Sequence record: OK322699.1
Source of the DNA: Escherichia phage Sa157lw
Reading direction: 5' to 3' (one strand)
Length of the DNA stretch: 64,000 nt
A model generated the notes under the pieces. That model saw nothing but the letters and a program-made list of their open reading frames with translations, did no database searches and was not told the DNA's origin. The position numbers and the translations under genes were made by a program. Below are positions 25,251 through 26,720 of the stretch, piece by piece. Position 1 is the first letter of the stretch, and each line of letters opens with the position of its first letter.

Positions 25251-25285
25251 CAGACAAAAAGAAGCCCGATCGTCCTGATCGGGCT
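25251..25285 (-). terminator. intrinsic terminator at the 3' end of the tRNA cluster
   Basis: Perfect 9-bp stem agcccgatc/gatcgggct with 5-nt loop; minus strand continues tctttttgtc. Confidence 0.55.
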
Positions 25286-25508
25286 ATGTTAAACCATCGT
25301 GGGGATGGAAAGACTACTCACAGCAATTTCTGATAATGGGCGTTGGGAGAGTGCGTCGGGAATCGAACCCGAAATCGTCAGGACGCTGAAAGCTATTTGC
25401 ATTTCACTTGCATATCCTGCGACTTTCTTAACTTCCTTAACCCCAGATTGTTATGAAGTCAGCATGCACACCTTCTTCATCTTCAGGAAGTCACACTCAT
25501 TATTCTGA

Positions 25509-25594
25509 TTGCTTCAACTGGATTCGAACCAGTGACCTCAGGCACCTTGTTCTCTCGAAACTTTCCTGCGCTCTACCACTCGAGCTATGAAGCA
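25509..25594 (-). tRNA. tRNA-like element (canonical acceptor, D-arm and T-arm; anticodon arm does not fold canonically)
   Basis: Acceptor tgcttca/tgaagca, D-arm gctc-gagtggta-gagc and T-arm actgg-ttcgaat-ccagt are textbook, but the 36 nt between cannot be folded by eye. Confidence 0.4.
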
Positions 25595-25597
25595 ATT

Positions 25598-25686
25598 TGG
25601 CGGAAGGTGAAGGATTCGAACCTTCGGGGGCTAAAAGCCCCACTCGATTAGCAGTCGAGTCCCTTAAACCTCTCGGGCAACCTTCC
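25598..25686 (-). tRNA. tRNA-Ser (GCU), type II with long variable arm, CCA encoded
   Basis: Hand fold: acceptor ggaaggt/accttcc, 3-bp D-stem, anticodon arm ctcga-cuGCUaa-tcgag, variable hairpin gggc-tttt-agccc, T-arm gaagg-ttcgaat-ccttc. Confidence 0.8.
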
Positions 25687-25690
25687 AATT

Positions 25691-25774
25691 TGGAGCGGGA
25701 GAACAGGATTCGAACCTGTCCAGTGATCGTCGCCGATGATCAGTCGGCTACTGGCCAACCCCTATGGCTCCCGC
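25691..25774 (-). tRNA. tRNA-like element with GAU anticodon-like loop (possible Ile), non-canonical D region, CCA encoded
   Basis: Perfect acceptor gcgggag/ctcccgc, T-arm acagg-ttcgaat-cctgt, hairpin gccga-cuGAUca-tcggc; extra nucleotide before the 3' acceptor strand and no clean D-arm. Confidence 0.4.
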
Positions 25775-26249
25775 GAAATTTGGACGGGCTTCACACCCGA
25801 TTGAGCATTTGATCTGCCGTAGCCCAACTCCCCGCGCTTCACAGCGCCGATTGGTTAACTGGCGACCAGTGCCTTCTGGTTCGATCTCCTGGAACTTTAC
25901 AGGCTTCGCGCCCGACCATTTCTGGAAGTTGGGGCATCGTTTCCGATGTGGAGTCACCCCATTTTATACACAGCTGGCTGCAACGCTTACTGTGTTTGGT
26001 CTACCGCTACGTGCTGGGCCACGCTCGAGGACATCGGCCATCCTTCCTCAGCTAATCCACGCAGCGGCAGATTTGTATCAGAGTGTCCGGTGTAGCTTTC
26101 CGTGAGGTGCGCACTACTGTAGCCTCTACACTCTGAAATTGTTTGAAGTAGGTCTCACTCCCCTGGGTATCTGTATCCTGCAGCCTTACATTGGCAGCTA
26201 TCGCGCGATTCGCACTTCCGAAGGCGCTTCGAGATACTCTACTTCAATT

Positions 26250-26325
26250 TGGCGACGATGGCAGGACTTGAACCTGCGACATACGATTTAACAGACCGCC
26301 GTTCTACCGACTGAACTACATCGTC
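26250..26325 (-). tRNA. tRNA-Asn (GUU), CCA encoded
   Basis: Hand fold: acceptor gacgatg/catcgtc, D-arm gttc-agtcggta-gaac, anticodon arm gcggt-cuGUUaa-atcgt, T-arm gcagg-ttcaagt-cctgc. Confidence 0.85.
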
Positions 26326-26644: not shown

Positions 26645-26720
26645 TGGTGACCCTGGCTGGACTTGAACCAGCGACCAATCGATTATGAGTCGACTGCTCT
26701 AACCACTGAGCTACGGGGCC
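26645..26720 (-). tRNA. tRNA-Met (CAU; elongator-type or lysidine Ile2), CCA encoded
   Basis: Hand fold: acceptor ggccccg/cagggtc (one C-A mismatch), D-arm gctc-agtggtta-gagc, anticodon arm gtcga-cuCAUaa-tcgat, T-arm gctgg-ttcaagt-ccagc. Confidence 0.75.

Follow-up and report, generated by a model that had tools for sequence, protein, structure and literature searches.

Phage tRNA clusters have long been known to encode stable RNAs of unknown function. In the tRNA cluster of T4, species 1 and 2 (rnaC/rnaD) are small non-tRNA RNAs that are co-processed with tRNAs and have no known function. The C4 RNA of P1/P7 (Rfam RF01695) and the CI RNA of P4 are tRNA-like antisense RNAs, matured by RNase P, that act via exposed loops. 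A tRNA body can also be made to carry a foreign RNA: Ponchon and Dardel reportedly engineered a tRNA scaffold for RNA expression, in which the cargo RNA replaces the anticodon arm. Here, we consider two aberrant tRNA-like genes, elements A and B, in a 64,000-nucleotide (nt) stretch of Escherichia phage Sa157lw (sequence record OK322699.1), referred to below as the window. The window belongs to a Kuttervirus phage (Ackermannviridae, Vi01-like); it matched 316 phage records, Kuttervirus for the most part. The two elements and the relevant parts of element A are located as follows:

25509-25594, minus strand: element A, an 86-nt tRNA-shaped RNA gene with a tRNA-Ile-type body, whose anticodon arm is replaced by a foreign arm of 30 nt (Rfam tRNA, 48.7 bits)
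25510-25516, minus strand: 3′ strand of the acceptor of A, pairing with 25588-25594; the discriminator A is at 25509
25539-25568, minus strand: payload arm of A (RNA positions 27-56), with the tetraloop GAGA at 25553-25556
25691-25774, minus strand: element B, an aberrant tRNA-like cassette of 84 nt that has a GAU hairpin and encodes CCA (ARAGORN Ile(gat))

The reading that we favor, with a probability of roughly 45%, is that element A would be a non-decoding, tRNA-scaffolded RNA gene with an exchanged 30-nt arm, and element B a separate, lineage-restricted, decaying copy of a tRNA. Element A would then represent a conserved, horizontally spread kind of tRNA-bodied non-decoding RNA, a putative kin of the phage tRNA-like RNAs.

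Element A: tRNA body and 30-nt arm

Element A was not called by ARAGORN in default mode, and Rfam with default filters reported three clean tRNAs in the window but neither A nor B. In a sensitive search, A aligned to positions 1-71 of the Rfam tRNA model RF00005 with 48.7 bits (gathering score 29; E = 6e-9 in a 1.7-kb search). Its acceptor (7 base pairs, bp), D arm (4-bp stem, GG-containing loop) and T arm (5-bp stem, UUCRANY loop) are perfect. The four outer pairs of the anticodon stem enclose 22 nt, compared to 9 in the Rfam model, and the score is reached only because the model can skip the insert locally. A first-pass annotation, made from the sequence alone, had described A in the same terms, as an element with a perfect acceptor, D arm and T arm but no foldable anticodon arm, and the Rfam alignment agrees with it.

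In a decoding tRNA, the 5-bp anticodon stem closes a loop of 7 nt in which position 33 is U and position 37 a purine; the arm of A does not yield a loop with U33. When the intron option was switched on, ARAGORN forced A into a “tRNA-Pro(agg)” that has A33 and an intron of 15 nt at 31/32, a non-canonical position. This forced fold explains the mixed GenBank labels of A, which include tRNA-OTHER, pseudo, Pro, Leu and “hypothetical protein”; “Undet(nnn)” is also found in GenBank notes, and in SFP10, A is labeled a pseudo tRNA. The insert of A is 13 to 15 nt long; a tRNA intron of the archaeal or eukaryal type would lie at 37/38 and have a bulge-helix-bulge motif, a bacterial group I intron in the anticodon loop would comprise at least 200 nt, and no group I intron was matched in A by Rfam. 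Since the arm yields no 7-nt U33 loop and no canonical intron position fits, a decoding tRNA is not supported for A.

The origin of the body is indicated by phage ECML-4, where the slot of A, directly after tRNA-Ser, is occupied by a normal 76-nt tRNA-Ile(GAU). The acceptor, D stem, variable loop, T arm and discriminator of this tRNA are identical to those of A, while the anticodon arm and a few D-loop bases differ. On this comparison, element A has the body of a tRNA-Ile-type gene, in which the anticodon arm has been replaced. The canonical tRNA-Ile(GAU) was found in ~31 records at ≥99% identity and the A form in ~134 Ackermannviridae records; in Taipeivirus, tRNA-Gln occupies the slot. Kuttervirus copies of A have an altered D loop (a GAG or CAG insertion), and in the window the discriminator is followed by UCA, not by the CCA present in close relatives.

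The arm of A can be drawn as a 4-bp stem (CAGG/CCUG), an internal loop (AAAGU on the 5′ side and CAAGGUG on the 3′ side), a 3-bp stem (UUC/GAA) and the GAGA tetraloop. Its consensus reads, in order, CAGG, A-R-A-G-Y, UUC, G-N-R-A, GAA, CAAGGUG and YCUG, and is near-invariant in 52 viral contigs and 14 metagenome contigs. Variation is confined to one R, two Y and tetraloop positions 2-3 (GAGA, GGAA, GAAA or GGGA, always GNRA), and one of the variable Y positions keeps a G-C or G-U pair at the stem end. Between the A-type gene of Agtrevirus SKML-39 and the lambdoid phage HK620, 34 nt are 100% identical. A near-invariant sequence with an irregular internal loop and a GNRA cap would be the look of a specifically recognized motif.

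Matches to A in BLAST searches extended beyond Ackermannviridae. The arm is present in tRNA bodies of Agtrevirus SKML-39, Kaypoctavirus VLCpiP4b, Gamaleyavirus HK2, the 111-kb coliphage EP_H11 and further viral and metagenome contigs, and two of the arm-bearing genera outside Ackermannviridae are N4-like. The A-type RNA of HK2 is solitary: no tRNA was called within the 3 kb that surround it. Some of these bodies have the acceptor stem of A, others have GCCCACU/AGUGGGY, and one has GUCCACU/AGUGGAU, with an additional compensatory change from C-G to U-A. Among ten distinct sequences, five of the seven acceptor pairs were changed on both sides and 100% of cells were paired, an acceptor covariation score that was matched by none of 500 shuffles. 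The D stem, T arm, tertiary-contact nucleotides and arm stems were invariant across the arm-bearing tRNA bodies.

No known Rfam family was matched by the arm or by the second carrier described below (window and 10 loci searched), and no target complementary to the arm was identified. The arm had 0 matches in bacterial reference genomes taken at one genome per species. Keyword and sequence-string searches found neither the arm nor the second carrier described in the literature, nor A as a family. Several resemblances, compared by eye, were set aside because they were unsupported or no greater than expected by chance: to signal recognition particle RNA domain IV, the sarcin-ricin loop, the K-turn, lambda boxB, CsrA sites and CRISPR repeats, and an 8-nt identity (AACAAGGU) with 16S ribosomal RNA positions 1499-1506. 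Papers on the Pas small RNA and on anti-retron systems proved unrelated.

The tRNA-shaped scaffold as a second carrier

The arm pattern also matched ~40 prophage-like contigs in which it is not set in a tRNA body. Here the arm lies in an RNA that we refer to as the scaffold, a family defined by a 5′ block (GAAUGCGCAGGCUGAUGCGC) and a 3′ block (GCCGGAGAUCAGCACCGGCC) inside a covarying closing stem. Its cloverleaf consists of a closing stem of 7 to 9 bp, a GCGC/GCGC hairpin with the loop AGGCUGAU, the arm at the position of an anticodon arm, and a GCCGG/CCGGC hairpin with the loop AGAUCAGCG. The side loops GCUGAU and AUCAGC are mutually complementary, and their pairing, which is without covariation support, would mimic the tRNA elbow. 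The arm-bearing scaffold is present in the lambdoid phages HK620 and HK633, in swi2 (next to tRNA-Met), in SopranoGao and in Klebsiella phages, and it was never annotated; it was also found in 107 of 5426 E. coli genomes, which are prophage-bearing. The HK620 copy of the scaffold is part of the late leader and is flanked by the qut site and the late terminator.

A sensitive search retrieved 149 phage records that have the 5′ and 3′ blocks of the scaffold and wholly different middles, and a scan of IMG/VR with the 5′ block gave at least 120 loci. The hosts of the scaffold are lambdoid, P1-like, N4-like and Ackermannviridae phages and many environmental viral contigs. Copies with other inserts include IME207 and the P1-like RCS47, which have one insert in common, as well as ASO78B, the N4-like IME11 and Taipeivirus UPM2146. 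The collected scaffold loci are L061 1253-1356 (HK620), L062 2501-2604, L078-L083 and L084-L198.

A perfect 7-bp closing stem abutting a 5-bp hairpin was found in 146 of 177 instances. Each position of the closing stem shows three to five pair types, and the second hairpin has compensatory variants. Inserts are 26 to 159 nt long and fall into 69 unrelated clusters, the commonest being an arm identical to that of A (35 + 14 loci). No motif is shared among the inserts, with no k-mer above shuffles. The sequence NCCA follows the scaffold stem at offset 1 in 16 of 95 distinct copies compared to 3.4 expected. A conserved open reading frame through the scaffold was considered and rejected: several members contain stops and insert lengths are not multiples of three, so the scaffold is non-coding. 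No conserved gene was found downstream of scaffold copies, whose neighbors are heterogeneous. Neither the 5′ nor the 3′ block occurs in the window, even with three mismatches allowed; element A and the scaffold family have the insert in common but not the scaffold.

A few scaffold loci carry further RNAs. The insert of L088 contains a hammerhead-like core (CUGAUGAGGCCAUAAGGCCGAAAC), another insert contains a genuine tRNA (Rfam, 40.3 bits), and a Proteo-phage-1 RNA (RF03044, 76.8 bits) lies just upstream of one scaffold copy; the coordinates given for the last two oddities are L183 7101-7176 and L121 3205-3282. In swi2, ARAGORN called a 375-nt transfer-messenger RNA (tmRNA; L062 2410-2784) that spans both the scaffold RNA and tRNA-Met and is probably a false positive.

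Element B and the tRNA cluster

ARAGORN called element B as an 84-nt tRNA-Ile(gat). In Rfam, B fell below threshold on RF00005, and its best match within the clan was tRNA-Sec, which scored 23.2 bits where the gathering score is 47. The acceptor of B has 7 bp, its discriminator is U and CCA is encoded. The anticodon-like hairpin has a GCCGA/UCGGC stem and the loop CUGAUCA, in which U33 is present and C37 is not a purine; an alternative fold competes with this stem. The D stem has 3 bp, one of them a weak pair, the variable region is 12 nt long and unpaired, and the T stem of 4 to 5 bp is followed by an extra c/t position before the acceptor. The ARAGORN drawing agrees with what the first-pass annotation had reported for B: a perfect acceptor, CCA and a GAU hairpin, without a clean D arm and with an extra nucleotide at the junction of T stem and acceptor. 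Neither ARAGORN nor Rfam folded both elements as ordinary tRNAs, a result that would have meant an error in the hand fold of that annotation; the hand fold was essentially right.

Element B was found in Kuttervirus and Agtrevirus only, with 45 intact copies (97.6-100% identity) and 27 records with a 37-nt internal deletion (SFP10, Det7, moki and others); 28 records are ≥99% identical to the window copy. The central region of B was also sought in other scaffolds and was found only in Ackermannviridae. The nucleotide of the fifth T-stem pair varies between U, C and A, giving A-U, A.C and A.A, and one copy has lost a base of its acceptor. In relatives without B (ECML-4-type phages and others), the same slot before tRNA-Ser holds a 66-nt hairpin cassette with a long inverted repeat. 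This cassette (CUCGGUCAGGUCAAGAA...UUCUUGACCGAG) lies at ~2680-2745 of L002 (ECML-4) and is also present in L004, L005, L007, L011 and L012. Being lineage-restricted and often deleted, with a variable unpaired junction nucleotide, B fits the pattern of a pseudogene, and most likely it represents a dispensable, decaying tRNA-like cassette or tRNA copy.

Elements A and B lie inside a co-oriented cluster on the minus strand, which runs from tRNA-Met to an intrinsic terminator and in which most units end in CCA followed by AAUU. The tRNA region is 98.3% identical between the window and Salmonella phage vB_Hercules_SET. As the first-pass annotation had noted, three clean tRNAs accompany A and B, called by ARAGORN as Ser(gct), Asn(gtt) and Met(cat); there was no ARAGORN call of a tmRNA in the window. 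In order of transcription, the other features of the cluster are as follows:

26645-26720, minus strand: tRNA-Met(cat), clean (ARAGORN and Rfam)
26250-26325, minus strand: tRNA-Asn(gtt), clean (ARAGORN and Rfam)
25598-25686, minus strand: canonical tRNA-Ser(GCU), between B and A (ARAGORN and Rfam)
25346-25498, minus strand: candidate tRNA-like stable RNA of ~150 nt, directly 3′ of A (minimum free energy, MFE, z = -3.3)
25263-25285, minus strand: intrinsic terminator closing the tRNA and non-coding RNA cluster (9-bp stem, then UCUUUUUGUC)

The ~150-nt candidate combines an acceptor-like stem of 7 bp (GAGUGUG/CGCACUC) and a T arm (UCGGG-UUCGAUU-CCCGA) with two long internal hairpins and a UCCCA tail at its 3′ end. 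It was found in 230 phage records across Kuttervirus, Agtrevirus and Taipeivirus (Ackermannviridae), with compensatory changes in 13 of 42 pairs. It is unannotated in every record, and in some a “hypothetical protein” call overlaps it. A record named “Enterococcus phage Efm 3-10” (OR844942.1, 111 kb) contains the Kuttervirus form of this RNA at 94% identity and may be mislabeled or chimeric.

Between tRNA-Asn and element B lies a highly conserved and apparently non-coding spacer of ~470 nt (25775-26250, minus strand), which probably holds further processed RNAs. A GAAGUAG/CUACUUC stem unit directly follows tRNA-Asn, and the spacer ends at its 3′ side in ...GAAGCCCGUCCA and AAUUU; in SFP10, its first part is replaced by a different sequence. 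Within the spacer, a structured RNA at ~25997-26071 (minus strand; MFE z = -2.7) has a terminal helix of 12 to 14 bp (UCUGCCGCUGCG/CGUAGCGGUAGA) followed by CCA, and the helix shows compensatory changes when the window, Hercules and ECML-4 are compared. Both ECML-4 and Ag3 have a tRNA-Tyr inserted immediately behind this RNA, with a duplicated ACCAAA.

Alternative readings and known systems

The first-pass annotation had offered unusual functional tRNAs, decoys or pseudogenes for both elements. For A, the decoding tRNA is not supported, the pseudogene is a poor fit, and a functional non-decoding RNA or decoy is left standing; for B, confinement to one lineage, frequent deletion and the failure to preserve the fifth T-stem pair tip the balance toward a pseudogene-like cassette. 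That both are plain tRNA pseudogenes, A having lost its anticodon arm to illegitimate recombination or an insertion and being carried neutrally in a conserved cluster, is in our view unlikely. The pseudo tRNA label in SFP10, the UCA in place of CCA in the window, the altered Kuttervirus D loop and the mosaic cluster with its many cassette gains and losses speak for it, and it coincides with our preferred reading of B. A tRNA pseudogene would be recognized by lineage-private defects and uncompensated stems, whereas the arm of A is found in several phage families, in tRNA bodies of at least four phage groups, and the acceptor is compensated: differing at five of seven pairs, it is still 100% paired, with the extra C-G to U-A compensation besides. 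The D stem, T arm and tertiary nucleotides do not vary, and a neutral wreck would not be expected to be kept and exchanged, as the arm has been in its second scaffold. Thus, the conservation of the arm in unrelated phage families, the compensatory acceptor changes and the second scaffold together make A a poor pseudogene. It is far less probable still that A is an intron-containing or expanded-loop tRNA that decodes after the loss of ~13-15 nt through a nuclease and a ligase (for example, RtcB or RNA-ligase repair). ARAGORN can be made to draw such a tRNA-Pro(agg) with a 15-nt intron, and the insert equals almost exactly the extra length over a normal tRNA (86 compared to 73 nt). However, the predicted splice site is at 31/32 and not at 37/38, the resulting loop CAAGGUG has A33, and none of the contiguous 13-nt deletions, all enumerated by hand, yields a U33 loop. 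Moreover, a GAU, CAU or UAU that could serve isoleucine is absent from the arm, a group I intron would have to be far longer, a bulge-helix-bulge motif is not apparent, and decoding is implausible for the same arm in a scaffold without T-loop and D-loop consensus.

The 34 nt that are 100% identical between unrelated phages could also mean that the conserved 30-34 bp work as DNA, as a recombination, homing-endonuclease or other protein-binding site, the tRNA-like setting being a by-product of cassette shuffling. Mosaic neighborhoods, an HNH endonuclease gene ~750 bp away in swi2 and arm stems without covariation would suit this proposal, to which we give little credence: in both scaffolds the arm is always on the transcribed strand and exactly where a cloverleaf has its anticodon arm, its variable positions preserve the GNRA loop and G-C/G-U at the stem end, and no nuclease gene is consistently linked to it. 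We regard as similarly doubtful the proposal that B, not A, is a working tRNA-Ile(GAU) that makes up for the lost decoding of A. Besides the ARAGORN Ile(gat) call, it is favored by the absence of B from ECML-4-type phage, where the slot of A holds the canonical tRNA-Ile. Yet the A type occurs without B in many phages, SFP10, Det7 and moki, among others, having lost 37 nt of B and L004, L005 and L012 carrying the hairpin cassette, so B is no systematic compensation for A. Element B also fails the Rfam tRNA model, and its junction nucleotide varies freely. The modified nucleotide t6A37 is an identity element for isoleucyl-tRNA synthetase (IleRS), and B has C37 in place of the A37 of tRNA-Ile.

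Several observations weigh against the reading of A as a non-decoding RNA gene with an exchanged arm and of B as a decaying tRNA copy. As a plain Watson-Crick structure the arm is unstable, its folding energy of -3.9 to -5.8 kcal/mol being weak and no better than that of shuffles. Neither its 3-bp stem nor its 4-bp stem shows covariation, and when a relaxed pattern scan let the 3-bp stem covary, the loci it returned were the same 52; the fold of the arm is thus a model that draws on the GNRA pattern and sequence conservation alone. The two acceptor lineages are essentially one or two evolutionary events, and therefore the evidence for a maintained cloverleaf is good but not overwhelming. High identity between scaffolds may stem from recent transfer and not from selection, the encoded CCA is lost in the window copy of A, and 69 unrelated insert clusters fit a neutral expansion site equally well as a payload slot. 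As to B, its acceptance by ARAGORN as tRNA-Ile(GAU) and the 28 near-identical records could leave it a weak residual decoding role.

If element A is a non-decoding RNA on a tRNA body, it would be transcribed along with the tRNA cluster up to the terminator at 25263-25285 and excised in the manner of a tRNA by RNase P, 3′ trimming and CCA repair. The tRNA body would give the RNA stability, and the arm would be its working part, its sequence being recognized by a host or phage factor, so that A would act as a decoy or aptamer and not as a codon reader. A broader and more tentative proposal, which we consider possible at odds well below even, is that the arm is a portable protein- or RNA-binding decoy or aptamer on tRNA-shaped carriers of enterobacterial phages, and that the scaffold is a widespread, undescribed class of tRNA mimics with a hypervariable payload slot, for example for counter-defense or host-takeover RNAs. 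Phage RNAs such as A are usually discarded by annotators as “tRNA-OTHER” or pseudogenes, and annotation pipelines give this one four different names, all of them wrong (Pro, Leu, OTHER and hypothetical protein). With an arm that is conserved and has moved between unrelated phages and between two tRNA-shaped carriers, A is a concrete, testable candidate for a non-decoding function, and both the 86-nt RNA and the 30-nt arm are short objects for such tests. Two further kinds of RNA come to light in the analysis: a large family of tRNA-shaped phage RNAs that have variable inserts and are not annotated, and the conserved ~150-nt tRNA-like RNA of Ackermannviridae. Should the arm bind a host factor such as a tRNA-directed defense nuclease, an RNA-decoy route would be added to the theme of phage tRNAs against anticodon nucleases.

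By descent, the closest relatives of A are ordinary phage tRNA-Ile genes. The tRNA-Ile(GAU) of ECML-4 shares with A its genomic position and the flanking CCAAAUU spacers; it differs in having a 17-nt anticodon arm (UUCCCCUGAUAAGGGAG) in place of the 30-nt foreign arm, and A has an altered D loop, no anticodon and, in the window, no encoded CCA. The tRNA-shaped scaffold RNA of HK620, swi2, IME207, RCS47, IME11 and UPM2146 resembles A in that the arm stands at the anticodon-arm position of a cloverleaf. Unlike A, it is without the D-loop and T-loop consensus of tRNAs, and its inserts are hypervariable. In logic, and not by descent, the nearest counterparts of A would be the T4 stable RNAs, the C4 and CI RNAs and the engineered tRNA scaffold. 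The T4 stable RNAs would be comparable to A as small RNAs among phage tRNA genes, but they are not known as a tRNA body with a swapped anticodon arm. The C4 and CI RNAs may likewise be compared to A as cloverleaf-like phage RNAs; C4 differs in that neither A nor the scaffold copies match the Rfam C4 family. The engineered tRNA scaffold is man-made, whereas A is natural, but the architecture of the two would be the same, with the body kept for processing and stability and the cargo placed at the anticodon stem.

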